Source: a virus
Strand: one strand, 5' to 3'
DNA length: 64,000 bases
Virus record (IMG/VR): IMGVR_UViG_2974715105_000001
Span: 720 to 64,719 of that record
How positions within the stretch are numbered: position 1 is the first letter of the stretch; the number at the start of each line of letters is the position of its first letter. A program made the position numbers and the translations under genes. Below the pieces are notes generated by a model. It saw only the letters and a program-made list of their open reading frames with translations, ran no database searches and was not told the origin of the DNA. Of this stretch, positions 3,385 to 63,430 are shown piece by piece.

Positions 3385-3822
3385 TTATTTCGGAAGAGCC
3401 TGGAAATAGTTCCAGATCCAATCGCCTGCGGCCAGGACAACGACGAGAACTGCGAAGAACACGACTGCAGAGACCAATTGTGCGCCAGGCTTCAGCTTGG
3501 GGTGGCTGAGTTTTGGCTCTACCGGATTCGCCGGAGTGCTGGCGCTTGGCCCGGCGTCTTCTGGACCAAAGCCGGCGCCGCGCTCGCGTGCCTGGATGGA
3601 CGCTATGGATTTCAAATACTCTGTCTGCTTTTGCGACTCTTCGTAGATGCCGGCGACGGCGAACCAGAGTGCGAACACTACGGCCGTGCAGACGACCCAG
3701 GCTCCGGTCAGAAGGATGGCCAGCGGACCGATGATTAAGACGGAAGCCGTCAGGACGATGGCGCCGCCCCAGATGATGAAGCCGGCCAGACCATTGGTGA
3801 TGTCGATGCAGAATTTCTTCAT
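3385..3822 (-). CDS. Membrane protein, 2-3 TM helices (145 aa)
   Basis: Hydrophobic N-terminal hairpin and C-terminal TM; RBS AAGGA. Confidence 0.78.
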   Translation of the reverse strand: MKKFCIDITNGLAGFIIWGGAIVLTASVLIIGPLAILLTGAWVVCTAVVFALWFAVAGIYEESQKQTEYLKSIASIQARERGAGFGPEDAGPSASTPANPVEPKLSHPKLKPGAQLVSAVVFFAVLVVVLAAGDWIWNYFQALPK

Positions 3823-7612: not shown

Positions 7613-9910
7613 ATGTTTAAACTTTCCTGGATATTCGGGCGCAAAAAGGATAATGCTGCCTGTTCTGAATCGGCGCCGGAGAAAGTCGCACGAATCCCTC
7701 AGCACGATCCGCTCGACCCTATGATTAAGCTTGGGAAGATTCGCGGCTGGAACGTCGAGCCGGAGAAAGCTCCGGTCATCCGTAGCGTGAAGGATTTTCT
7801 GGAGCCGGGTCTATCCGTCGCAATGGACAGTGCGTATGGTGACGGACCCACCCCAGCCGCGAAAGCTGCCGCTGGCGGCCAGAATCCCTATGTAGTCCCG
7901 ACCATGCTGCAGGACTGGTATAATTCCCAAGGATTCATCGGATACCAAGCTTGCGCCATCATTTCTCAGCACTGGTTGGTTGACAAAGCTTGCTCCATGT
8001 CAGGCGAAGACGCCGCGCGGAACGGATGGGAACTCAAGTCGGACGGCCGGAAGCTGTCGGATGAACAAAGCGCGCTGATCGCCCGGCGCGACATGGAGTT
8101 CCGCATCAAAGACAACCTTGTCGAGCTGAATCGATTCAAGAACGTTTTCGGCGTTCGCATCGCGCTATTCGTAGTGGAATCCGACGATCCTGACTACTAT
8201 GAGAAACCGTTCAACCCTGATGGCATCACCCCCGGCTCTTACAAAGGTATCTCCCAGGTTGACCCGTATTGGGCGATGCCGCAATTGACTGCGGCCTCGA
8301 CTGCAGATCCATCTGCCGAGCACTTTTATGAGCCGGATTTCTGGATCATCAGCGGGAAGAAGTATCATCGCAGCCATCTGGTGGTCGTTCGTGGGCCGCA
8401 GCCGCCAGATATCCTGAAGCCGACATACATTTTCGGAGGCATCCCGCTCACCCAGCGCATTTACGAGCGCGTGTATGCTGCCGAGCGAACTGCGAACGAA
8501 GCGCCGTTGCTGGCGATGTCGAAGCGAACCAGCACCATTCACGTTGACGTGGAAAAGGCCATCGCGAATGAGGATGCCTTCAACGCCCGTCTGGCGTTCT
8601 GGATCGCCAATCGAGACAACCATGGCGTGAAAGTTATTGGTATTGATGAAACCATGGAGCAGTTCGATACGAACCTGTCCGATTTCGACAGCGTCATCAT
8701 GAACCAATATCAGCTGGTTGCGGCCATCGCCAAGACTCCTGCGACGAAGCTACTCGGCACTTCTCCCAAAGGATTCAACGCGACTGGTGAGCACGAGACG
8801 ATTTCTTATCACGAAGAGTTGGAATCGATTCAAGAGCATATATTCGACCCGCTGCTTGAGCGTCATTATTTGCTGCTGGCAAAATCGGAAGCGATCGATG
8901 TACAGCTGGAAATCGTCTGGAACCCTGTGGATTCCACAACCAGCCAGCAGCAAGCCGAGCTGAACAACAAGAAAGCGGCAACTGATGAAATTTACATCAA
9001 CTCCGGCGTCGTGTCTCCGGATGAAGTCCGCGAGCGCCTGCGTGATGATCCGCGCTCCGGCTATAATCGACTCACCGACGATCAGGCCGAAACCGAGCCG
9101 GGCATGTCTCCGGAAAACCTGGCCGAACTCGAAAAGGCCGGTGCGCAGTCGGCGAAGGCGAAAGGCGAGGCCGAGCGAGCCGAAGCCCAAGCGGGCGCCG
9201 TAGAAGGCGCAGGCGACCCAGTTCCGGCCGCTCCACGCGGTACTAAGCCCCTCGCGAAAGCGGCCGAGGAAGGGGCCGGCGAGGCCGCTACACCGCCGTC
9301 GCGGCCGAACCCCAGGGCCGAGCTTCGGAACCTGCTGTCCGATCTACTGTCGAAACTCGAAGCCCTGGACGACGCGCAGGCTCCGGACGGCGTGGACATA
9401 GAGCAGGATGACGCGCCAGGTCTGAAGAGAACGTCAAAGCCGAGCGTATCGGGTATGGAGCCTTCGGTGTTTTCGTCCAACCGCATCGTCGGCCCTCGTG
9501 ATCATTCTGAACTCCAGAGGATCAAGGTCAATGGAATTACTACCTTGATCGAAAATCCGCGCGGAAGTATCCGGCAAGGGAAGGATGGGAGCTGGCGAGT
9601 CCAGATGAAACACCACTATGGGTTCATCAAAGGTACGAAGGGGGCTGATGGTGATGAGGTCGATTGCTTCGTAGGCCCGAACCTTGGTTCGAAACGGGTC
9701 TTCGTCGTCAACCAGGTGAACAAAGAGGGGCAATTCGACGAGCACAAGTGCATGCTCGGCTTCAACAACATCAACGACGCCAAGTCTGGATATCTGTCTT
9801 GCTTCCGTCCGGGCTGGGATGGACTCGGCTCCATCCATGAAGTTGATCTGCCCGCCTTCCGTCGCTGGCTGGCAAACGGCGACACTACGAAGCCATTTGG
9901 AGGCAAGTGA
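7613..9910 (+). CDS. Portal protein with C-terminal pyrophosphatase-like extension (765 aa)
   Basis: First structural gene; DUF1073/anti-CBASS-unrelated portal-type core (LLGTSPKGFNATGEHE); Ala/Pro/Glu linker; terminal ~130-aa domain. Confidence 0.88.
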   Translation: MFKLSWIFGRKKDNAACSESAPEKVARIPQHDPLDPMIKLGKIRGWNVEPEKAPVIRSVKDFLEPGLSVAMDSAYGDGPTPAAKAAAGGQNPYVVPTMLQDWYNSQGFIGYQACAIISQHWLVDKACSMSGEDAARNGWELKSDGRKLSDEQSALIARRDMEFRIKDNLVELNRFKNVFGVRIALFVVESDDPDYYEKPFNPDGITPGSYKGISQVDPYWAMPQLTAASTADPSAEHFYEPDFWIISGKKYHRSHLVVVRGPQPPDILKPTYIFGGIPLTQRIYERVYAAERTANEAPLLAMSKRTSTIHVDVEKAIANEDAFNARLAFWIANRDNHGVKVIGIDETMEQFDTNLSDFDSVIMNQYQLVAAIAKTPATKLLGTSPKGFNATGEHETISYHEELESIQEHIFDPLLERHYLLLAKSEAIDVQLEIVWNPVDSTTSQQQAELNNKKAATDEIYINSGVVSPDEVRERLRDDPRSGYNRLTDDQAETEPGMSPENLAELEKAGAQSAKAKGEAERAEAQAGAVEGAGDPVPAAPRGTKPLAKAAEEGAGEAATPPSRPNPRAELRNLLSDLLSKLEALDDAQAPDGVDIEQDDAPGLKRTSKPSVSGMEPSVFSSNRIVGPRDHSELQRIKVNGITTLIENPRGSIRQGKDGSWRVQMKHHYGFIKGTKGADGDEVDCFVGPNLGSKRVFVVNQVNKEGQFDEHKCMLGFNNINDAKSGYLSCFRPGWDGLGSIHEVDLPAFRRWLANGDTTKPFGGK

Positions 9911-10972: not shown

Positions 10973-11106
10973 ACCGAAAGACATGCATACGCCGACTCGC
11001 GACCGATGTAATCAAGGCCAATATTAACGGCGGATTCTTCAGCCTGAAGTTTGCCGCAGTTGATCTGGCCATCATCGGCGTCTCAATCCTGATTGCTTTC
11101 GGCTGA
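10969..11106 (+). CDS. Small membrane protein (45 aa)
   Basis: ATGA overlap; [10 protein letters not shown]...[13 protein letters not shown]; read by eye, not in the ORF track. Confidence 0.6.
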
Positions 11107-11540
11107 TGATGCCGCGAAAATCCGGATTCTGAATAAAAATTCGGGTCCGGATAGCCGCAAATTACCGTTTCTGGGAAATAGCGGTAATTTGGAAAGCCTA
11201 CTGCCGCAAGGCTTTAACATGCTAAATTCCTAATTTCCAATTTCGCCGCATGCCGCAAAAGTATATAGCATGGGAAATTAGGAATAACGTTCTAATAGAA
11301 TTCATCTATAAGTAACGTTATAATATAACGTGAATCGATATGCTCTATACGTATTGAAATTCAATTTTTAATTGGTAAATTGGTAATTTGGATTAGTTTA
11401 AAGATTGAAAGTCTTGCGGCAGTAGGCTTAGACAAATCCCGTCAAATTTCCGAAACCAAGTTACCAGTTTTCGCGGCTGAGGAAATCCGGTAATTAGATC
11501 ACAATACAGATTCTAGTGTAAATTAACAGTCGCGGCTACA
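11107..11540. other. AT-rich non-coding element A with convergent GCCGCRA motifs and nested inverted repeats
   Basis: 17-bp perfect IR at 11194-11210/11413-11429; 13-bp IR at 11226-11238/11273-11285; homologous to 57173-57450. Confidence 0.8.
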
Positions 11541-11560
11541 TCTAATTATTGTTCCGCTTA

Positions 11561-11589
11561 TTTACCCTTGGATGTCCTGCGTATATAAT
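11561..11589 (+). promoter_or_regulatory. Sigma70-like promoter of the head operon
   Basis: TTTACC, 17 nt, TATAAT. Confidence 0.65.
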
Positions 11590-11621
11590 ACAGCCATAGT
11601 CCACGACTCTTCGAATTAACG

Positions 11622-13058
11622 ATGGCAAAGTCGAAAAGAAAAATTGACGAAAATGGATATATGACCATCGAGGGTTGTCCAATCAGCTCTTATGGCATTT
11701 TCCAATATTCTGCCGGTCAACTCGGTCTTCCGGGCGATCCGATGCGGATTGTCAACGTGTATCGTCCGGAGTCTGCCGTTAGCGATCCTGAGTACATCGA
11801 ATCTCTGAAGAATCTCCCGCTGATCGACGAGCACGAAATGCTGTCGGGATTCGACGGCGATGACGACGGCGTGGCTCCCGAAGACAAAGGCGTGGAAGGC
11901 ATCATCACAGCCAACGCCTACTACGAAGCTCCATGGGCTCGCGGCGATATCCGCATCTATTCCCGCAACATGCAGCATCAGCTGGAAAGGGGCAAGGAAG
12001 ATCTGTCCCTAGGCTATAGTTGCCGCTACACTGAGCAACCCGGCATCTGGAATGGAACGCCTTATGAAGTCGTCCAGGACAAGATGCGCGGCAACCACAT
12101 CGCCCTGGTAAAAGAGGGTCGTGTGCCGGGGGCCAGAGTATTGGATGGTCTGTGCTTTGACCATCTCAGTTTTGATTTCAGACCATCCGATGAGGGTAAT
12201 GAAATGGGTCTCAAGAAAGCCAAGCAGAAGACTCCTGTCCAGCGCGCAGGACAAGCTGCTGATTCGGCGGTCGAAGAGTTGCGCGCCCTGTGGCCGAAGC
12301 TCTCTGCATCTGTCCAGAAGTTCCTGGGCGAAGAGGCGCAGGAGCCGGAGCACCAGGAAGGCGCAGCCGCTCCGGCCGAACCGACCGACAGCGAGCACAT
12401 GACCGAGCATCCGACTCTGGAAGGCGCTCAGGGAGACGACGAAGAGCACGAAGAAGCGCCGTCCGTTGTCGATCCGGCCGTGGCCGCCGTCGATCCGGAG
12501 CATCAAGAAGGTGCCGCATCCGAAATGTCCGGTGAAGGCGAAGTCGCCGAACTGATCTCCCAGGTCAAGGCCATTCTGGCTCGACTGGAGGGCACGGTAG
12601 CCGAAGAGGCGGACGAAGAGCATGGCAAAGGTCAAGATGTCGTCGAGGGCTTGGAAGAACAGAGCATCCTCAGCGGCGCGCAAACCGCCAGCGACGATGG
12701 TGGTGAGGGCAAGGATAACAGCGAGGAACTTCCTGAAATGGCACAGAAGAACGCGCAAGATGCTGCAATTCGTGGTCTCTATCGCGACATTGCTGCTAAA
12801 GATCGCCTCTACAAGCGTCTTAGTTCCGTGGTTGGTGCGTTCGATCACCGAGCTATGGACTCGGCTGAAGTCGCTGTTTACGGCGTGAAGAAGCTGGCGA
12901 TCAGCTGTGAGAAGGGCCAGGAAGTTCTGGCGCTCGACATGTACCTGAAAGGCGTCGAAGCTGCTCGTGGCGCGGCCAGCCGTCAATCGAAAGCCCAGGA
13001 TTCGGCCAGTTCTGCTCCGCAGTGCGCCGAGCTGGACAGTTACCTGAAGGGGGAGTAA
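11622..13058 (+). CDS. DUF2213-type prohead protease/scaffold protein (478 aa)
   Basis: N-terminal DUF2213-like domain (DLSLGYSC...GNHIALVKEGR) followed by an acidic scaffold; upstream of the capsid genes. Confidence 0.85.
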   Translation: MAKSKRKIDENGYMTIEGCPISSYGIFQYSAGQLGLPGDPMRIVNVYRPESAVSDPEYIESLKNLPLIDEHEMLSGFDGDDDGVAPEDKGVEGIITANAYYEAPWARGDIRIYSRNMQHQLERGKEDLSLGYSCRYTEQPGIWNGTPYEVVQDKMRGNHIALVKEGRVPGARVLDGLCFDHLSFDFRPSDEGNEMGLKKAKQKTPVQRAGQAADSAVEELRALWPKLSASVQKFLGEEAQEPEHQEGAAAPAEPTDSEHMTEHPTLEGAQGDDEEHEEAPSVVDPAVAAVDPEHQEGAASEMSGEGEVAELISQVKAILARLEGTVAEEADEEHGKGQDVVEGLEEQSILSGAQTASDDGGEGKDNSEELPEMAQKNAQDAAIRGLYRDIAAKDRLYKRLSSVVGAFDHRAMDSAEVAVYGVKKLAISCEKGQEVLALDMYLKGVEAARGAASRQSKAQDSASSAPQCAELDSYLKGE

Positions 13059-15876: not shown

Positions 15877-16271
15877 TCCCTGGAGCGAATCTGCTGCGTA
15901 TGGCATTTAGCGTCATAGGAACGCAGCTCGTTCAGTATCGCAAATTCGAGCAGAGGACGAAGAATAGCCAGGCGCAGTACGTTTCTGTGTTTGGCGAGCC
16001 ATTCCAATTGGCCGCTTCCATCCAAAGGGTTCGTCGCGATCAGTATGTCCAGTTCAATCTGGAGTTTCAACGAAATTACGTCATGATCTTCGCCAACTTT
16101 GAGATGGTTGACTTGGATCGAGATTTGGCCGGCGACCAGTTTATATGGACCGGAAGAGTTTTTCAACTAGAGTCTCAAGGCTCTTGGTTTTATCAGGACG
16201 GCTGGGGAGTCTGCTTAGCCGTGGATATCGGTACAGCAAAACTAGCTGAAGACGGAACCCTGACTTTCTAG
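15873..16271 (+). CDS. Neck / head-closure protein (132 aa)
   Basis: GTG start overlapping the adaptor stop (GTGA); position in the neck module. Confidence 0.7.
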   Translation: MIPGANLLRMAFSVIGTQLVQYRKFEQRTKNSQAQYVSVFGEPFQLAASIQRVRRDQYVQFNLEFQRNYVMIFANFEMVDLDRDLAGDQFIWTGRVFQLESQGSWFYQDGWGVCLAVDIGTAKLAEDGTLTF

Positions 16272-48732: not shown

Positions 48733-49606
48733 TTACTCTTCTTCACCATCGGAACCGTCGGCGCCCTGACCTTCACCGTCGTGCTCCTGGCCTTCATCGG
48801 CCTTCTCGTCATCGCCCTGGCCAGCTTCGTCTTCCTTCGAAGCGATGGCAACCAGATCGACCCAGCCCATGATTTCCAGCTTGCTCAGATAGCTGCGAAC
48901 CGAGGTGCCGTACAGCAGGTGGGCCACCTTCTCGCCGAAGGATTCGATTTCGACCGGCTCACCAACGGTGCAGTGCTCGTTGATGTAAGCAAACACCTTG
49001 CCGCGAGTCGAGAAGGCCTGCGGGGTTCCATGGCCGTCGCCGGTCGGGATGAAGTGAGTGGCGCGGGGGCGACGCGAGCCGTTGGACTTCAGGTCTTCGC
49101 GGCGGGCTTCGGCCTTCGCGCGGCGCTCTTCCTGCTCTTCCTTGCGGCGCTGCTTCTCGGCTTCGCGCTCTGCCTTCTTCTGCTCGGCCAGGCGCTTGCG
49201 CTCTTCTTCGCGTGCGGCTTTCTGGGCTTCCTGCGCGGCCTTCTGCGCGCTCGGCTTCCTTCTCGGCCTTCTTCTGCTCGCGCTCGGCTTCCTTCGCCTT
49301 GGCCTTCTCGGCCTGCTCGGCTTCCTTCGCCTTGGCCTTTTCAGCGCGCTCGGCTTCCTTGGCGGCGGCCTTTTCCTTCGCCTTCTCGGCGCGCTCGGCT
49401 TCTTTCTTCTCGCGCTCGGCTTTGCGCTTCTCTTCGCGCTCGGCTTTCTTCTGCTCGGCTTCCTTGGCCTTGGCTTCGGCCTTCTCGGCGCGCTCGCGCT
49501 CTTTACGTTGGCGCTCAGCGGCCTTCTCGGCCTTGCGCAGGGCAGCGGCTTGTTCCTTGGTCAGCTCTTCGCCTTGGGTCTGTTCGTTCTGGTCCTTCTG
49601 TTCCAT
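48733..49606 (-). pseudogene. Frameshifted gene: long Glu/Lys/Ala charged helix, winged-helix domain and acidic tail (291 aa if restored)
   Basis: The charged-helix frame shifts at GCGCGC 49245-49250; adding one GC unit gives ...EAERAQKAAQEAQK... open to the stop at 48733. Confidence 0.75.
49282..49347. repeat. 33-bp tandem repeat (AEKAKAKEAE(Q/R)) within a larger degenerate array
   Basis: Units 49282-49314 and 49315-49347 are near-identical. Confidence 0.85.
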
Positions 49607-53320: not shown

Positions 53321-53779
53321 ATGGAACAGCAGAAACCTTCGGAAGTAGATGGAGCCATCGTCATGACCGATCTCGATATTCGCATTCTTCGAAAGGCGAA
53401 GCCAGAAGCGCAGGACGAGTGCGCCGTGTCCATGTTCGCAACGGCGATCCGCCAGAAACTGCAGCGCTCCCGCGATAAGGGCCGAGGCGGCTGGATCGAC
53501 TGCGACGAAGATGTTCTGATCAACGGATTCGCCGAACATGCGCTGAAGGGCAATGAGAACAACCTCCTGGACCTGGCGACGTTCCTGATGTTCATGTGGG
53601 TGCGCGGCATCGATGATGCGAAGATTCCCCCGGCGCTCGAAAAGGCGAGACAGCACAAGATCATGGAAGCCTGGAGTCGAATCCATGAAGACGGCCTGAA
53701 CTCCGCCAGAAAGGCGAGCGCTGCGCGACAGTTCGTGGAAGTGCCGCGACGCAAGGGGCGCCCGGAGCGACTTGCATGA
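53321..53779 (+). CDS. Hypothetical all-alpha protein (152 aa)
   Basis: RBS AAGGAG; FATAIRQKLQRSRDKGRGGW...EHALKG...DLATFLMF. Confidence 0.72.
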   Translation: MEQQKPSEVDGAIVMTDLDIRILRKAKPEAQDECAVSMFATAIRQKLQRSRDKGRGGWIDCDEDVLINGFAEHALKGNENNLLDLATFLMFMWVRGIDDAKIPPALEKARQHKIMEAWSRIHEDGLNSARKASAARQFVEVPRRKGRPERLA

Positions 53780-54852
53780 AGCCTCACGAAATAAGACTGG
53801 CCCAGGCCGAAGAGTTCCTGCGCGAACTCGGCCGAGGGATTCCGGACGACGAACGGGTAATGGTCGGCTACGCTGAAGAGGCCACAGTCCAAACCGACGA
53901 GAACGGCCGCAAGCTCAACGCAGGCTGGTGGCCCGTGCCCTGGAAGGAAGGCAAGTACATCAATTCCAGGTCAAACGCCTACGCCTGTATCTCGTCTTCC
54001 ATCAAGACGCCCAACCCGAAGACCGGCCAGATGCGATACTGGCGCGGCGAGGCCTCTTTCGGCCACGGCCTGGCGTTAATGGTCGATGACATCGGCTCCG
54101 GCAAAGGTTCCAAAGGCGACTTCGACCGCGACGAGTTCCGCGAACGCCTGGAGCCGACCGCGATTGTGGAGACTTCGCCGAACAACTACCAGTTCTGGTA
54201 TTTCTTCAAAGAGCCGATGTCCCACATGCTTCAGTTTAAGGCATTGCTCTATTCGTTCGTGGACCAGGTGCTAAAGAAAGGCGGTGACAACACCGTCAAA
54301 GATGTCAGCCGTTATGGTCGCATGCCATTCGGCTTCAACAACAAGCGCGGGAAAGACGGCAACTTCAAGTATGCCGACGAAAACGGCAAACCCGAACTCG
54401 TGCGTCTGTATCACGCAGACTATTCCAAGCGCTACTCGCCAGAGGAAATCACCCAGGCCTTCGGCGTCCGTATCATTATGCCACAGATGAAGAAGGTGGA
54501 GATAAATCGCGACGATTGGGTTTATGACCAAGTATGGCTGAAGTATGCCGAGCATATCTGTACGAAGTACAAGATGGGTGAGGCAGCGGGCGGCCAAGTC
54601 CAACAGAATATGTCCGGCAAATATCGCATCCGCTGCCCATGGGGAGACGAGCATACAAATGGCGATCCATTCGGCGCCTACTTTCGCGGGCCGATCCCTG
54701 GAGCTGAGCACGAATATGTATTCGGCTGCGGCCACGATACTTGCCGCAAAGAGCATCGTCGGACGTGGGCTGCCTTCACGGATGAAGTCGTGCTACCCTA
54801 TATCGTCGAACAATTGGAAAGAATCAACCGCCGTCATATCGGTGAGGAGTAG
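53776..54852 (+). CDS. RepB-type (AEP superfamily) DNA primase (358 aa)
   Basis: LMVDDIG, TAIVETSPNNYQFWY, RYGRMPFGFN; C-terminal CPWGDEH...CGHDTC zinc site. Confidence 0.82.
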   Translation: MKPHEIRLAQAEEFLRELGRGIPDDERVMVGYAEEATVQTDENGRKLNAGWWPVPWKEGKYINSRSNAYACISSSIKTPNPKTGQMRYWRGEASFGHGLALMVDDIGSGKGSKGDFDRDEFRERLEPTAIVETSPNNYQFWYFFKEPMSHMLQFKALLYSFVDQVLKKGGDNTVKDVSRYGRMPFGFNNKRGKDGNFKYADENGKPELVRLYHADYSKRYSPEEITQAFGVRIIMPQMKKVEINRDDWVYDQVWLKYAEHICTKYKMGEAAGGQVQQNMSGKYRIRCPWGDEHTNGDPFGAYFRGPIPGAEHEYVFGCGHDTCRKEHRRTWAAFTDEVVLPYIVEQLERINRRHIGEE

Positions 54853-55190: not shown

Positions 55191-56921
55191 ATGATTATCG
55201 ACGACGATAACATTCTTGATGATGACGAATCGGGGTCCAGTGAGTTCGACCTCACGCAGATAGAAGATGCCGGAATGGACCCTTTGATGACCGCCGCAAG
55301 TAAAGCGGCCGATGATGCGATTGCGAGGAATGAGACGTATCGCGCACAAAAGGCGGCAAAGTATGCCGAGGCTTATGCGGAACCAGATTTGAAGAAGCGA
55401 GCGCGATTGTTGATGCTCGATCAGGCCTTTGATCTTCCGGTCAGCCGGCTAGTGAAAGGACCGTTCGACGACTTCATCACAAAGTACAGCTCGACTTCAG
55501 ACAGCAACTACCTCGCGGTCTATGATACGTTGTTCTGTAAGGGCGACGGAACTGTCCCACACCCGCACTTCGACGAGTTTCGCGGCCGGCTGGTGGACCA
55601 TCGCGGCGTGGCGTTCAACAACAAGACCCTCGACCCGATTGACCTGATGGGCGCCCTCGCGGCTGCGGCCTTGGATGATCCATCGATCAAGAAAACGATT
55701 GAGACTTGCTGCGTTTGGGCGCGTCGATATCGCCGCAACTCGCTGATCGAGACGTTTGAGAAGAAGATACCGGAGTGGGACGGCGAAGAGCGAATTAGCA
55801 CGTTGCTGATCGATCTTTTCAAGCCGTTCGACACCGAATTGAACCGGATGGTGAGCAAGTATTTCTGGCTGAGCCTGTACTGCCGCATCAACTATCCGGG
55901 AATCTCGGCGCCGATCTCGCTGGCATTGATTGGTGGGCAGGATGCGGGTAAATCCTATTTCGGCCTGCTGATCTGCAAAGAGCTGTCGGGCGGTCGCGAT
56001 CTGGCTCCAGTCCAACTCGACCTGAGCCGGCATGACCAGACGCCATTCCTGCGCAACATCACCGGTAACTCGGTTATTGCGAACGTCGGTGAAATGTCCG
56101 GCTTCAAAAAGGGCGACATGGAACGCATCAAAGAGTTCCTGGTGCGATCTTCTGATACATTCGACCAGAAGTTTGAGCCGGGCGAGACGATCAAGCGACA
56201 ATGGATCACCATCATGGACGGCAACGGCTACGATGGACTCCAGCGGGACGACTCTGGTAACCGCCGTTTCTATCCAATGTTCGTGGCGCAACTGCCCGAT
56301 GAGGATGGAAAGCCGAACTGGGTAAAGCCAGGCGACGGCAACGAACCGTTCAAAGTGGACTTCACCGACTTCGGCCGCAAATTCTGGCAAGCGATGGCCG
56401 AGTGCCGCGCCTGGATCGAAGAGCATGGCGTCGATGGCTACCTGAATATGGTGTCGGAGGCAAACCGCGAAGTCCAGAACTTCTCTATTTCGGAAATGGA
56501 GAATGCGCGCGGCGTGGTTCGCGACGATACGATTGATATGTATCTGATCAATGTTCTGATCAGTTGCGAGTTTGAAGAGGTTAAGCCTGGTGGGAATTCC
56601 AAGACTCCTGGGTGGCGTGTCAATACGGTGGAAATCTTGAAGTGGTTCGATATTCTCGCCAGGAAGAAGCCGATTTCTCGCCATTTAACTCCGCACCTGA
56701 AAGCACTTGGGTTCATTCCGAATAAGAACGGCCTGAATGGATGGCTCCTGCCTGCCGATAAAGTTGCCGGTCAGGAAATGATTGGGTCCTTGCCGTCATT
56801 CAACGATGCGCTGATATATATGGTCAGGAAGAATGACGCCGCTGTCTCTGATGATGATGCCATGTCGCATGTCCGCAGAGTCAAGGCAGAGCGAGCCAAG
56901 ATATTGGGCGAGGATTTCTAG
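55191..56921 (+). CDS. VirE/VapE-family P-loop helicase (576 aa)
   Basis: ALIGGQDAGKS Walker A, VGEM, DDSGNRRFYP. Confidence 0.85.
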   Translation: MIIDDDNILDDDESGSSEFDLTQIEDAGMDPLMTAASKAADDAIARNETYRAQKAAKYAEAYAEPDLKKRARLLMLDQAFDLPVSRLVKGPFDDFITKYSSTSDSNYLAVYDTLFCKGDGTVPHPHFDEFRGRLVDHRGVAFNNKTLDPIDLMGALAAAALDDPSIKKTIETCCVWARRYRRNSLIETFEKKIPEWDGEERISTLLIDLFKPFDTELNRMVSKYFWLSLYCRINYPGISAPISLALIGGQDAGKSYFGLLICKELSGGRDLAPVQLDLSRHDQTPFLRNITGNSVIANVGEMSGFKKGDMERIKEFLVRSSDTFDQKFEPGETIKRQWITIMDGNGYDGLQRDDSGNRRFYPMFVAQLPDEDGKPNWVKPGDGNEPFKVDFTDFGRKFWQAMAECRAWIEEHGVDGYLNMVSEANREVQNFSISEMENARGVVRDDTIDMYLINVLISCEFEEVKPGGNSKTPGWRVNTVEILKWFDILARKKPISRHLTPHLKALGFIPNKNGLNGWLLPADKVAGQEMIGSLPSFNDALIYMVRKNDAAVSDDDAMSHVRRVKAERAKILGEDF

Positions 56922-56957: not shown

Positions 56958-56980
56958 AGGCCGCCTTCGGGCGGTCTTTT
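56958..56980 (+). terminator. Intrinsic terminator, UUCG loop
   Basis: AGGCCGCC-TTCG-GGCGGTCT-TTTCTTT. Confidence 0.88.
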
Positions 56981-57172
56981 CTTTGGCGCGGAGAACATTA
57001 ATTTAGCTTGTGAACGGGTGAGGTTTGAAAGCCATGTGGGAATTAGGGTGGCGCGGCGGTGGTGTATTATGGGAAGTTGATAGATTTTCGGTATTGGTCT
57101 GGTGTGTATGATGGTTGGATTTTGCGTGAAATGTTGAGAAATTATGGGTTTGAGGTGGATTTTTTGTGGGAA

Positions 57173-57470
57173 ATAGCCGCAAATTCCTGGATAGCGATTC
57201 TGACTGGGAAGATGGGAGGCCTACTGCCGCGTGGGTTAGCGGCCAATTTCCCGAATTCCCGGTTTTTCGAGCATGGTTTAAAACTATTCTACAGCGAAAA
57301 TCGATTGCACAATCCTAATAGAAAAAATCTATCACGGACGTTACCTATCTTTAAAATTAATAAAATTAATGGGAATTTGGTAATTTGGAATAGTTTAGTC
57401 TTTGAAAGCCTCGCGGCACTAAGCCTGTACACTACCCGGCAAGTTTCCGATTCCGCTCAACTCGCGGCAG
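57173..57470. other. AT-rich non-coding element B, homologous to element A
   Basis: Exact 13-mers ATAGCCGCAAATT and TTGGTAATTTGGA shared with 11151-11453, in the same order. Confidence 0.8.
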
Positions 57471-57902
57471 GGTCGCCGGAAACTTCCGTCCTTCCAATCC
57501 ATGGGCAGCGGCAACACCACGGCGGACTAAGCGGCAAGGTCCAAAACCGGACGAGCGGAACCGGAAATTTGGCAACGGGACAGAATCGCTCATCTGGACA
57601 TATTCCTAACATTCGATTTAACATTCGATCCAAACACTCACCGCCACCATCACCCGCCACCAGCCAATCCGATCCTCACCCACCAGCATACCTCCCATAT
57701 AACATCCTATAACACCACCTAACACTCATTCACCATCCAACCCACCCATACCTACCGACCACCCACAAGCAGCCCATAGACGTGCTCCCTGGCCCCATAG
57801 TACAATCGCGCCATACTCAGTGTCGCGGCAAAGCACTAGGTCCCATCAACAGCCAGGCAACCGCGACGGTCCAAGAATCGAACTCCAGGGACGCAGCAAC
57901 AA

Positions 57903-58475
57903 ATGACCGCCAAATCCTACAGACCCGACGATTTAGTCACGCCACAAGAATTCGCTGATCCGCAGTTCGCGGCGATCAACCAGAAGCGTTTCGATCTGTA
58001 CATCGACCTGCGCGTTCAAGGCTACAGCTCCTGGCGGGTCTTCCGGGCGATCTGGGGCGAAGAGCACATGGACGGGCCGGCCCAGGCTCGCATCTTCGCG
58101 ATGGAGTCCAACCCGTACTATCGCAAGCAGTTCAAAGCCAAGCTGAATGCGACCAGAACGTCCGATCTGTGGAATCCAAAGACGGCGCTTCACGAACTTC
58201 TCCAGATGGTTCGCGATCCCACTGTCAAGGACTCCAGCCGTCTATCGGCCATCAAAGAGCTGAACGTTCTGGCCGAAATCACGTTCGTTGACGAGTCTGG
58301 CAAAACCAGGGTCGGTCGCGGATTGGCAGACTTCTACGCATCGGAAGCCGAGGCCCAGACCGCCACCGTCGCTGCTGCGGCCGAAGCCAATGGCTATGTA
58401 CAGGACGGTAAAGAGGGCGATTTCCCGTCCCCGACGCCGGAACCGACCGAGGAGGACCGCGCCAACCCCATTTAG
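57903..58475 (+). CDS. terS: Terminase small subunit (190 aa)
   Basis: HTH-like N-terminus, oligomerisation helix SSRLSAIKELNVL; a TerS far from TerL has been reported for Pbunavirus E217. Confidence 0.72.
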   Translation: MTAKSYRPDDLVTPQEFADPQFAAINQKRFDLYIDLRVQGYSSWRVFRAIWGEEHMDGPAQARIFAMESNPYYRKQFKAKLNATRTSDLWNPKTALHELLQMVRDPTVKDSSRLSAIKELNVLAEITFVDESGKTRVGRGLADFYASEAEAQTATVAAAAEANGYVQDGKEGDFPSPTPEPTEEDRANPI

Positions 58476-58595
58476 ACATAAAATAACATCGTTCTAGGCC
58501 TGAATCGGACCGATCTAAGGCGACGGTAGCGGGTAGGGGCGAAAAACGATTCTAGGGCTGTTCTAGGAAGCCGACCAATAACGATCAGAAGCGAC

Positions 58596-58631
58596 AAAAG
58601 CCCCGGACTCTAGTTCAGAATCCGGGGCTTT
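58596..58631. terminator. Bidirectional intrinsic terminator
   Basis: AAAAGCCCCGGA...TCCGGGGCTTT between convergent genes. Confidence 0.85.
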
Positions 58632-58644
58632 CTTTTTGTGCTTC

Positions 58645-59259
58645 TTATTCTCCAGCTTCGATGATTTCGAAGTTGTATTTGACGCCTTCGTGCTCGAAAG
58701 TCAATTTGCCGGCCTCCTTCAGCTGCATGCGGAAGCGGATGTGCTTCGAAGAGGGCAGGCCGAACTCGATGAATGCTGCGTTGGTGGACCGGAACTCACC
58801 GCGCTTCCCTTTGACGGTCACCGCCACGCCATGACGCTGGGTGCGCTTTTTGGAGACTTCCGGGTCTTTCCAGGAGTTGGCGATGGCTGCGGACAGGTCT
58901 TTGGACTCTTTGACCTTCTCTGGCGCTTTCTTCGCCTCTTCGCGCATCTTCCGGATTTCTTCCAGCGCTTCCTCTTCGGTGACCTCTTCCTCCGGCTTCA
59001 GATTTTCTTCTTCGGCCTTCTCTTCTTCCTTCTTCTTGGAAGTGCGGGTTTTGTAAACCTTGGCCGGGGCTTCCTCTTCCTGGAAAGCTTCTTCCTCGGC
59101 CGGCAGAGCGTTCAGGATGGCGAGGCAGCGACGCTCGGCGGTCTTGCGATCAGAGAAGCGCTTGACAGTCGCATCGGCGTTGTGAGCGTTGTAGAAGGCG
59201 ACCAGTTCTTTCATTTCTGCGTTCTGGATGTCGCCGAAGGTTTTGATGGAGTTGGTCAT
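58645..59259 (-). CDS. Putative early DNA-binding protein (204 aa)
   Basis: Basic terminal domains, Glu-rich linker, SAAIANSWKDPEV motif; own promoter. Confidence 0.75.
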   Translation of the reverse strand: MTNSIKTFGDIQNAEMKELVAFYNAHNADATVKRFSDRKTAERRCLAILNALPAEEEAFQEEEAPAKVYKTRTSKKKEEEKAEEENLKPEEEVTEEEALEEIRKMREEAKKAPEKVKESKDLSAAIANSWKDPEVSKKRTQRHGVAVTVKGKRGEFRSTNAAFIEFGLPSSKHIRFRMQLKEAGKLTFEHEGVKYNFEIIEAGE

Positions 59260-59321
59260 TTTGCGATCCTCTGTTTTGGAAGATTTCGTTCGGGCTTCAG
59301 TTTGTCGCCCCGTTGAAAGAG

Positions 59322-59350
59322 ATTATGCCTAGGTCGATGCTGCGTGTCTA
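59322..59350 (-). promoter_or_regulatory. Sigma70-like promoter
   Basis: TAGACA, 17 nt, CATAAT. Confidence 0.7.
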
Positions 59351-59450
59351 CATTTATTTCAGCATAATGATGACGAACCCGACGAACGGTTGTCGGATGT
59401 GAAAACACAGCAGGACAGGCTGCGGTGTTTTCTGGACGATGCTGCGACGG

Positions 59451-60059
59451 TCAGAAGGTCGGGATCGGCTCGACAGGCAGGTCGCCAGGCTTATCGTTGT
59501 CCGACGCGGGAGACGGACTGGACGGGATGGCCCCGGACCGAAGCCCCAGCGGTTCAGGCCGCCTGCTTACCTGCGGTGCCGGAGGCGCGGGCGGAGCTTT
59601 TGGTGCTTTCGGCACTGGAGGCGCGGGCGGAGCTGGTGGAGACATCGGCCCTTCTGGGAGGTCGGGAAGGCTCGGTTCTTTCGGCTCGTAGTGAACTGTC
59701 GTGTCGTTGCCCGGTTCTGCGGGATCGACGCCTACGAACGGGGTTGTGACGCAGCGCATGTTTGGATAGTTCGGCAGATTCTTCAGGGCGATGGAGTCTG
59801 CCCAGACATACGGATTCTTGTGTTTGCCAGGGCCGTGGCTGATGATCTCGGCAGGCATGTGGCCGTTGAGGTTCAGCCACTCCGCCATCCCTTGCCGAGA
59901 CAGCGGGCTTACCACGATCTGGCCAGTGGCCTCTTCGGCAACGGCGAACAAATCGCCGAGTTTGAATCCGATGATCAAGTAGTTGGACCTGGCCTCGCCG
60001 ACGAAGGCGACAGTTTCAGTGCCGTGATGGATATCTTGATCTTCCCAGATGTATAGCAT
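59451..60059 (-). CDS. Protein with Pro-rich C-terminal tail (202 aa)
   Basis: RBS GAGGG; PPAPPAPPVPKAPKAPPAPPAP; 18-bp direct repeat at 59581 and 59617. Confidence 0.72.
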   Translation of the reverse strand: MLYIWEDQDIHHGTETVAFVGEARSNYLIIGFKLGDLFAVAEEATGQIVVSPLSRQGMAEWLNLNGHMPAEIISHGPGKHKNPYVWADSIALKNLPNYPNMRCVTTPFVGVDPAEPGNDTTVHYEPKEPSLPDLPEGPMSPPAPPAPPVPKAPKAPPAPPAPQVSRRPEPLGLRSGAIPSSPSPASDNDKPGDLPVEPIPTF

Positions 60060-63062: not shown

Positions 63063-63116
63063 TTCGCGTTTCGATGAGGTGACTATATCTAAGTCGCCTC
63101 ATCGAGTAAAGCACTT
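63063..63116 (-). promoter_or_regulatory. Early promoter with hairpin and conserved leader
   Basis: GTGCTTTACT, 17 nt, TATAGT; TCGATGAGG/CCTCATCGA inverted repeat. Confidence 0.8.
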
Positions 63117-63165
63117 CTGCGAAATTATTTGATATTCTGTAAGGTCAGGAGGCCGGACGATTTGG

Positions 63166-63351: not shown

Positions 63352-63378
63352 CTCACACCTCTTTGGTTTATTCACTCT

Positions 63379-63421
63379 ATGAGGTGACTATACCTCAGCC
63401 ACCTCATCGAGTAAAGCACTT
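63379..63421 (-). promoter_or_regulatory. Early promoter with hairpin, near-duplicate of 63074-63116
   Basis: GTGCTTTACT, 17 nt, TATAGT; ATGAGGTG/CACCTCAT inverted repeat. Confidence 0.8.
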
Positions 63422-63430
63422 TTGAGAGAA

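Follow-up and report, generated by a model that had tools for sequence, protein, structure and literature searches.

A probable pac region in a PB1-like Pseudomonas phage and its co-evolving twin upstream of the head genes

Introduction

The closest described systems to the locus considered here are of three kinds. Among packaging (pac) sites, that of SPP1 is organized as pacL-pacC-pacR, and that of P1 carries repeated hexamers on either side of the cut. Among replication origins, oriL and oriR of SPP1 and ori and crr of P4 are two distant sites with common initiator-binding repeats. The "synapsis" model of Black for the T4 terminase, which is not firmly established, involves homologous pac-like sequences in genes 16 and 19. 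The locus in question is a ~300-nt module found in exactly two copies, B (57160-57480) and A (11150-11460), in a 64,000-nt stretch of viral DNA (IMG/VR record IMGVR_UViG_2974715105_000001, positions 720 to 64,719; hereafter, the window), which is 64 kb out of a 65,852-bp PB1-like Pseudomonas phage (Pbunavirus). The nearest record is vB_Pa-PAC8, with 98.6-99.8% identity across the A and B regions, and the window starts within terL. A reading of the sequence alone (the original prediction) had singled out B as a diverged second copy of A and the two together as a candidate undescribed system for replication or packaging. We find that B is probably the pac region of this headful-packaging Pbunavirus, overlapping the distal sigma70 promoter of the small-terminase gene, terS.

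Results

The assignment of B is carried by virion DNA ends published for close relatives. Nanopore sequencing of JG024 virions gave 161 reads of more than 30 kb, of which 36 start at position 59,376 +/- 5, with a coverage dip directly upstream, and Ipoutcha et al. proposed a pac site there (PMC10913387). Comparison with the JG024 sequence places 59,376 at the C of AAAAT/CGATTGC, which is window 57302. Fixed read ends have been reported for Ab27-29 (Essoh 2015, PMC4482731), and for SCUT-S1, a pac site predicted by PhageTerm was placed in an AT-rich region (Guo et al. 2019, PMC6521218). The putative pac sites of JG024, Ab27-29, and SCUT-S1 are the same nucleotide; the records of Ab28, TH15, E2005-C, and BrSP1 all begin at window 57302, and that of PA8P1 begins 2 nt further on. 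Circularly permuted, terminally redundant virion DNA has been reported for JG024, R26, Banzai, and SCUT-S1, and in an older report, PB1 phages were claimed to have fixed ends. The start codon of terS is found 601 nt downstream of the cut, which falls where the intergenic gap is most strongly conserved. Three features that mark pac sites are found together at B: virion ends cluster at one site, as seen in end data from close relatives of this isolate; the site lies beside the small-terminase gene, a linkage repeated in the uncultured relatives G001 and G002 and in phages WFC, Gekk3-15, and tabernarius; and repeated elements flank the cut, in the form of inverted GCCGC/GCGGC arrays and GGTAATTT units here and of lineage-specific arrays in relatives. 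Packaging, which the original prediction had offered as an alternative to replication, holds for B, as published virion DNA ends map to its core.

B also contains a probable promoter. In the ONT-cappable-seq map of phage 14-1 (preprint of Putzeys 2024, Tables S3 and S5; bioRxiv 10.1101/2023.10.13.562163), promoter P040 has its transcription start site (TSS) at 59399(+), with TTAATA and TATACT separated by a 17-nt spacer containing GGTAATTTGG, and transcript TU045 runs from it over gp76, which is terS. The 50 nt upstream of P040 are the shared block TTGGTAATTTGG..TAGTTTA of B, and the right half of the similarity between A and B is therefore a working promoter in the B copy of 14-1. The mapped start sits between the arms of a long inverted repeat, a point that had been overlooked in the original prediction. 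In the same map, P041 (TSS 59807) and P014 (TSS 13257) have upstream sequences that match the window (Table 1). No TSS is mapped inside A in 14-1, and at the position matching the -10 element of P040, A reads ATTAGT, without the critical A at the second position. A guess that the "CTGGG" promoters of 14-1, P011 and P032, fall in A and B proved wrong, as both are minus-strand promoters, at 8970 and 50518. The sole noncoding RNA candidate of 14-1 was likewise rejected as a product of the element, being located elsewhere (62561-62469).

The twin module itself is real. A (11100-11620) and B (57120-57640) align colinearly and in the same orientation, as had been claimed, with a local score of 70 compared to 19.3 +/- 2.5 (maximum 32) in dinucleotide shuffles, or a z of about 20. 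The shuffled controls, which had been named in advance as a possible refutation, thus leave the alignment far above chance. The reverse-complement comparison scores only 39, and A and B are each other's best match across the whole window. A repeat search recovers a direct repeat of 100 nt at 72% identity (11354-11453 and 57351-57450) as well as two smaller shared blocks, and the shared block TTGGTAATTTGGANTAGTTTA has exactly 2 occurrences in the window with 0 expected. In both copies, an AT-rich core of 164-190 nt is enclosed by a long-range inverted repeat of 21 nt, and the repeat search gives a 49-nt long-range inverted repeat in A. (T/C)GCGGC(A/T) motifs form arrays that are inverted about the core in both copies, with a spacing of 43-59 nt. 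In B, they lie at 57175 and 57225 on the minus strand and at 57412 and 57463 on the plus strand, in keeping with the ~50-bp spacing originally noted; in A, where GCCGC motifs likewise stand left of the core and GCGGC motifs right, they lie at 11110, 11153, 11202, and 11251 (minus) and at 11415, 11472, and 11531 (plus). These are the densest clusters of the motif anywhere in the 64 kb. The two copies are 46 kb apart, or 19.8 kb the other way around the circle. Each of ~295 Pbunavirus records has two places matching B, and no DNA-level match to B was found outside the genus among GenBank phage records, on which these conservation counts are based; pattern and protein scans of IMG/VR gave few Pbunavirus loci.

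More distant relatives were found by searching with the head protease and TerS proteins, and seven lineages were sampled. The pair is kept in four of them, namely, Pbunavirus, the two uncultured lineages G001 and G002, and Escherichia phage WFC (Wifcevirus, MK373777.1). In the uncultured relatives (head protease 48-51% and TerS 44-49% identical), one module lies before the head protease gene and another before terS; in WFC (50% and about 41%), the best internal matches of the terS-proximal module all fall at 15,960-16,230, just upstream of the head protease gene. Within each lineage, A and B are similar, with z values of 21.6 in Pbunavirus, 18.7 in G002, 42.3 in G001, and 11.5 in WFC, whereas positional counterparts from different lineages score at background (20-29 when Pbunavirus, G001, and G002 are compared). 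The short repeats also vary by lineage, being GGTAATTT in Pbunavirus, TATCCGATAA in one uncultured lineage, TTGCGG in the other, and ACGGATGAT in WFC, and a GCCGC...GCGGC frame is common to all four. Copies that are alike within lineages and unlike between them imply a shared lineage-specific reader, homogenization of the copies, or both. We infer that A and B have a single lineage-specific DNA-binding protein as their reader, with the small terminase or the terminase holoenzyme as the likeliest candidate. An arrangement of two sites with one reader has thus gained support from the presence of the pair in four lineages and the co-evolution of its copies; the RepB-type primase and VirE-type helicase that had been named as the readers are unsupported. 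By the sequences compared, the pair would be older than the genus Pbunavirus.

WFC is also informative about B. It has been reported to have a terminal repeat of ~3.7 kb (PMC6563267). We find this repeat to be 3,784 bp, with its left boundary at 68,689 in the AT-rich core of the B-type module, 360 nt upstream of terS, and with no module copy or obvious motif at its right boundary (position 3784). Terminal redundancy of a first headful, and not a true fixed repeat, may account for this "repeat." The WFC helicase gene (58,057-59,706) and primase gene lie at least 8.7 kb from this module, which adjoins terS, and this break in synteny implies that the module travels with terS. B-type architecture upstream of terS is present in six of the seven lineages, including Aeromonas phage Gekk3-15 and Pseudomonas syringae phage tabernarius (MG018926.1), which keep a B-type island before terS. 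In tabernarius, a separate 33-nt long-range inverted repeat (65393-65425 and 65689-65721) is present in the island, which also has GATTGCCGCGC in common with a small GCGGC/GCCGC pair ahead of the head protease gene; this pair is possibly a vestigial A-type site.

Across nine diverse Pbunaviruses, the mean pairwise identity reaches 98.8% at 57300-57349 and 93% at 57350-57399 compared to 60-75% in the left flank. Two haplotype classes are evident over window 57000-57285, which comprises the left flank and left arm, with the sequence from the core rightward invariant in both; one class contains the window, L009, KTN6, L012, and JG024, and the other contains 14-1, SN, LBL3, DP1, and L013. The class of the window carries an A-like left arm in B, which suggests gene conversion from A. 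Such conversion is visible in the window itself, at the cost of two mismatches between the left arm of B and its own right arm.

A mirror-image strand skew, G+T-rich on the left and C+A-rich on the right, brackets B and not A, and the same polarity is seen near the terS-proximal module of G001, G002, WFC, and Gekk3-15 in sequences that are unrelated. With this arrangement, the G-rich strand points 5' to 3' at the cut from either side. Two Chi octamers of the Escherichia coli type (GCTGGTGG) lie on the minus strand at 57657 and 57680, 23 nt apart and facing the pac cut, and two more are found in the equivalent flank of Gekk3-15. A Chi-like protective role for the skewed flanks was considered and is unsupported in general, as GCTGGTGG is absent there from the E. 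coli phage WFC and three other lineages. The C-rich, G-poor terS leader could, speculatively, be a Rho-loading stretch. One Pbunavirus, L012, has a 36-nt tandem duplication within the C+A-rich right flank (~2200-2240). No consensus site for integration host factor was found in A or B, and one was found in the B-type module of WFC only.

As for A, the GenBank record of phage E215 (NC_042080.1) is linearized at window 11292/11293, inside the AT-rich core of A, with no end overlap and 14-15 nt off the position homologous to the cut in B. This was discarded as evidence of a cut at A, as the record is an unedited SPAdes contig with no end determination reported; the break may reflect either a gap in coverage or a real end.

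The features are collected in Table 1. B sits in a gene-free gap of ~980 nt between the helicase gene with its terminator and terS, which begins 430 nt downstream of B, and A sits in a gap of ~550 nt ahead of the head protease gene; matches in Pfam and PDB confirm this context as originally described, with B between a VirE-type helicase and terS and A before the head operon. A sequence identical to the terminator is listed as a terminator in JG024 (PMC3008698). Elsewhere in the window, degenerate tandem repeats with a 33-nt period occupy 49150-49560 within a coding region, and a 52-nt direct repeat with 87% identity and a hairpin (63071-63122 and 63376-63427) lies in the leftward early-gene region.

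Table 1. Features at and around the B and A modules (window coordinates)
Feature	Position	Strand	Basis and remarks
Preferred virion DNA end, putative pac cut, start of packaging series	57301..57302	.	AAAAT/CGATTGC; assigned by homology
Left flank of B	56990..57165	.	G+T-rich; GC skew +0.46 to +0.70; 60-73% identity
Left recognition half of B (putative)	57166..57284		Block ATAGCCGCAAATT; GCCGC motifs at 57175 and 57225; left inverted-repeat arm 57219-57239
AT-rich core of B	57285..57400		GC content 0.32; nearly invariant among Pbunaviruses; contains CTAATAGAA (57315-57323)
Right recognition half of B (putative) and adjoining conserved segment	57404..57640	.	Conservation 89-94%; right inverted-repeat arm 57404-57424; (T/C)GCGGC(A/T) at 57412 and 57463; GCGGCA at 57508 and 57531; block CCCG.CAA.TTTCCGA
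Right flank of B	57600..57800		C+A-rich; GC skew -0.43 to -0.81; part of terS leader
Homologue of 14-1 P040, sigma70 type, distal terS promoter	57366..57406	+	-35 TTAATG; 17-nt spacer GGAATTTGGTAATTTGG; -10 AATAGT; start ~57401-57406
Homologue of 14-1 P041, proximal terS promoter	57777..57812	+	TAGACG, 18 nt, TACAAT; promoter scan; 90 nt before terS
Element A, diverged paralogue of B	11151..11456	.	Inverted-repeat arms 11196-11216 and 11407-11427; AT-rich core 11217-11406
Homologue of 14-1 P014, sigma70 promoter of head operon	11561..11597	+	TTTACC, 17 nt, TATAAT; ~140 nt downstream of A
Head protease/scaffold gene (DUF2213), first gene past A	11622..13058	+	Pfam PF09979, E=2e-32
RepB-type primase gene	53776-54852		
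VapE/VirE-like helicase gene, upstream of B	55191..56921	+	Pfam PF05272, E=2e-22
Rho-independent terminator closing primase-helicase operon	56958..56985	+	Terminator scan; invariant in nine-phage alignment
terS (small terminase)	57903..58475	+	E=2e-119 to PDB 7UXE, E217 small terminase

Discussion

The main function of B is largely known from close relatives, through published DNA ends and a published TSS, and in that respect the system is not undescribed, as had been proposed. The pair of A and B and its co-evolution, however, seem to be undescribed in the literature searched. The papers on the pac sites of JG024, Ab27-29, and SCUT-S1 report the position only and describe no flanking arrays, long inverted repeat, mirror-skew flanks, or copy A, and in Garbe 2010, AT-rich boxes are noted without explanation, together with conserved motifs between genes, and nothing further (PMC3008698). 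For B, we envisage that a packaging series would begin with a terminase cut at 57301/57302 or close by, inside the invariant AT-rich core, and that packaging would then proceed rightwards through terS. Arrays of short repeats flank this core in inverted order, with GCCGC to its left, GCGGC some 50 nt apart to its right, and GGTAATTT units in addition. A is a paralogue of B that stands directly ahead of the head protease-scaffold-capsid operon, at a site that is not a known DNA end or TSS; it may serve, uncut, for terminase loading or synapsis, or it may control the head operon. Taken one step further, A and B could form a functional pair in which one protein, probably the ring-stacking decameric TerS, binds both and either synapses them on concatemers to license the cut at B or, through A, couples head expression to packaging, with the modules perhaps serving as unwinding sites too. 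We offer this version of the pair tentatively, as a possibility that is itself in considerable doubt.

Several observations weigh against these readings. The cut at 57301/57302 is assigned to the window by homology to the ends of relatives, and PhageTerm analyses of Banzai gave no significant peak (PMC12390725). The -10 element of P040 in the window, AATAGT, is weaker than the TATACT of 14-1 and was not called by a strict promoter scan, so the strength of the promoter here is uncertain. The small terminase of E217 showed no appreciable DNA binding in vitro (PMC9611059), and TerS is thus unproven as the reader. With regard to A, the JG024 authors report no second read-start cluster there, and its sole hint of a DNA end is the SPAdes contig break in E215. 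A second copy was not detected in Gekk3-15, tabernarius, or Xanthomonas phage FoX6, which implies that A is not universally required. Finally, compensatory changes in the arms of the inverted repeat suit base pairing as well as they suit the symmetry of a protein site.

Replication from two sites in the manner of P4, with the RepB-type primase and VirE-type helicase as the readers, was the interpretation favored in the original prediction, and we found no positive evidence for it. In its general form, an initiator would bind the repeats of A and B, melt the core, and load the VapE-type helicase and RepB-type primase, with B perhaps serving as both origin and pac site. A and B are indeed two loci that share repeats beside an AT-rich region suited to unwinding, with inverted arrays flanking an easily melted core at both and a promoter at the core edge. 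B adjoins the helicase gene in Pbunavirus, G001, G002, Gekk3-15, and tabernarius, and the SCUT-S1 authors raised the speculative possibility that their AT-rich pac region doubles as an origin (PMC6521218). However, the linkage to replication-initiation genes does not persist in evolution, as the module of WFC stands 8.7 kb from the helicase gene and beside terS, and A is always in the head-gene block. The genome-scale GC skew turns, with cumulative minima at about 42 kb and 51 kb and not at A or B, and the same behavior has been reported for the genus by Abramov et al. (PMC12390725); the skew switch at B is purely local, extending about 300 nt to each side. Apart from virion DNA ends and a TSS, B has no experimental signals, and no initiator has been identified. 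We therefore consider a two-site origin rather unlikely as the explanation of the modules, and an added origin function of A and B is possible but has no positive support.

A second alternative is that A and B are shared transcription-control modules, at which a phage regulator would bind the repeats before the terS and head operons and time their sigma70-type promoters, with packaging making use of features specific to B only. Every lineage with the pair has a sigma70-like promoter for terS or the head protease gene 100-400 nt past each copy (P014, P040, and P041 in 14-1, together with those in the scanned sequences of WFC, G001, and G002), and the mirror-skew flanks are specific to B, as this explanation would have it. 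Against this, the 14-1 map has no TSS inside A, the other structural-gene promoters (P013 and P015-P019) have no copy of the module, and no candidate regulator was found. The modules also differ from ordinary operators in their large size and in having an AT-rich core as their center of symmetry. On this evidence, control of transcription as the common function is distinctly unlikely.

The arms of the inverted repeat suggest a third alternative, in which A and B are structured elements whose long-range stem encloses the core, either in read-through transcripts, for processing or insulation, or in melted single-stranded DNA. The compensatory difference first noted between the copies, GCCGCA/TGCGGC in A and GCCGCG/CGCGGC in B, is real, although in the window itself the left arm of B (CTACTGCCGCG) is the A-like one and mismatches the right arm at two positions. 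Across 10 B and 6 A copies, 81.8% of the cells in the stem columns pair compared to 37-46% when the partner is slid. The check for covariation across Pbunavirus copies that had been suggested at the outset yields two-sided changes at three pairs (C:G to U:A, C:G to G:C, and G:C to A:U), and the one-sided changes are G:C to G:U; these represent few independent events, and with that reservation, the pattern favors selection for complementarity of the arms. A folds better as a single strand than its shuffles (z = -6.4), and RNA-library contigs (X16 and X20) span B. However, such contigs carry neither strand nor ends and cannot prove transcription, and one raw-read RNA run (X23) contained no phage reads. 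Two mismatches interrupt the arms in 5 of the 10 B copies, the window among them, whereas in the other haplotype class (14-1, SN, LBL3, and DP1) the arms of B pair perfectly across 12 nt. Matches to Rfam 15 covariance models numbered 0 in the whole window, which has no tRNA or tmRNA either. Because the mapped TSS lies inside the loop of B and the fold of B is no better than that of shuffles (z = -1.25), we rank a purely RNA explanation low, and structured elements of either kind strike us as improbable; the arms may instead pair in melted DNA or be symmetric protein sites kept alike by conversion. One of the contigs, X16, departs from B at the shared GCGGCA block (window 57418) and continues with A-type sequence GTAGGCTTAGACAAA, probably because the assembly graph of that phage crosses from one twin to the other at this point.

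Neutral duplication, a mobile repeat resembling a miniature inverted-repeat transposable element, or chance AT-rich similarity can be dismissed as barely credible, for although terminal inverted arms surround an AT-rich core and the A-like left arm of B in the window points to conversion between copies, the similarity stands at a z of about 20 relative to shuffles, the pair keeps its positions throughout about 295 genomes and across four lineages, in which the head protease and TerS have identities of only about 40-50% to those of this phage, the window has no further copies, and the core is nearly invariant.

If A and B do form a functional pair, they would constitute a two-site packaging-control device found across several myovirus genera and described for no headful phage. 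Few phages are used more in therapy against Pseudomonas aeruginosa than the Pbunaviruses, which are now being rebuilt synthetically, and for genome engineers, the two noncoding islands are probably cis-essential. The analysis also provides an anatomy of the pac region, in which the cut falls within an invariant core, repeat arrays lie on both sides of it, a promoter for terS is included, and the flanks have mirrored skews, and the second, co-evolving copy before the head genes in at least four lineages makes the modules concrete candidate binding substrates for TerS. The question raised is why a headful phage would keep an uncut twin of its own pac site.

Returning to the described systems, B resembles the pac sites of SPP1 and P1 in having short repeated recognition elements on both sides of the cut, in lying at or upstream of terS and overlapping a terS promoter, and in serving headful packaging. 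It differs from them in that there is no sequence similarity, in that TerS binding is unproven here, and in having a paralogous, uncut copy 46 kb away. Like oriL and oriR of SPP1 and ori and crr of P4, A and B are two separated noncoding sites that share repeats and an AT-rich stretch and presumably one reader protein; unlike them, one of the two sites is a mapped virion DNA end beside terS, and the linkage to replication genes breaks in WFC. The likeness to T4 lies in two homologous sites proposed to be bound by small-terminase rings, and a T4-like strategy has been suggested by reviewers for the TerS of E217 (PMC9611059). The T4 sites, however, are short and intragenic, whereas those described here are 300-nt noncoding modules, one of which has a defined cut.
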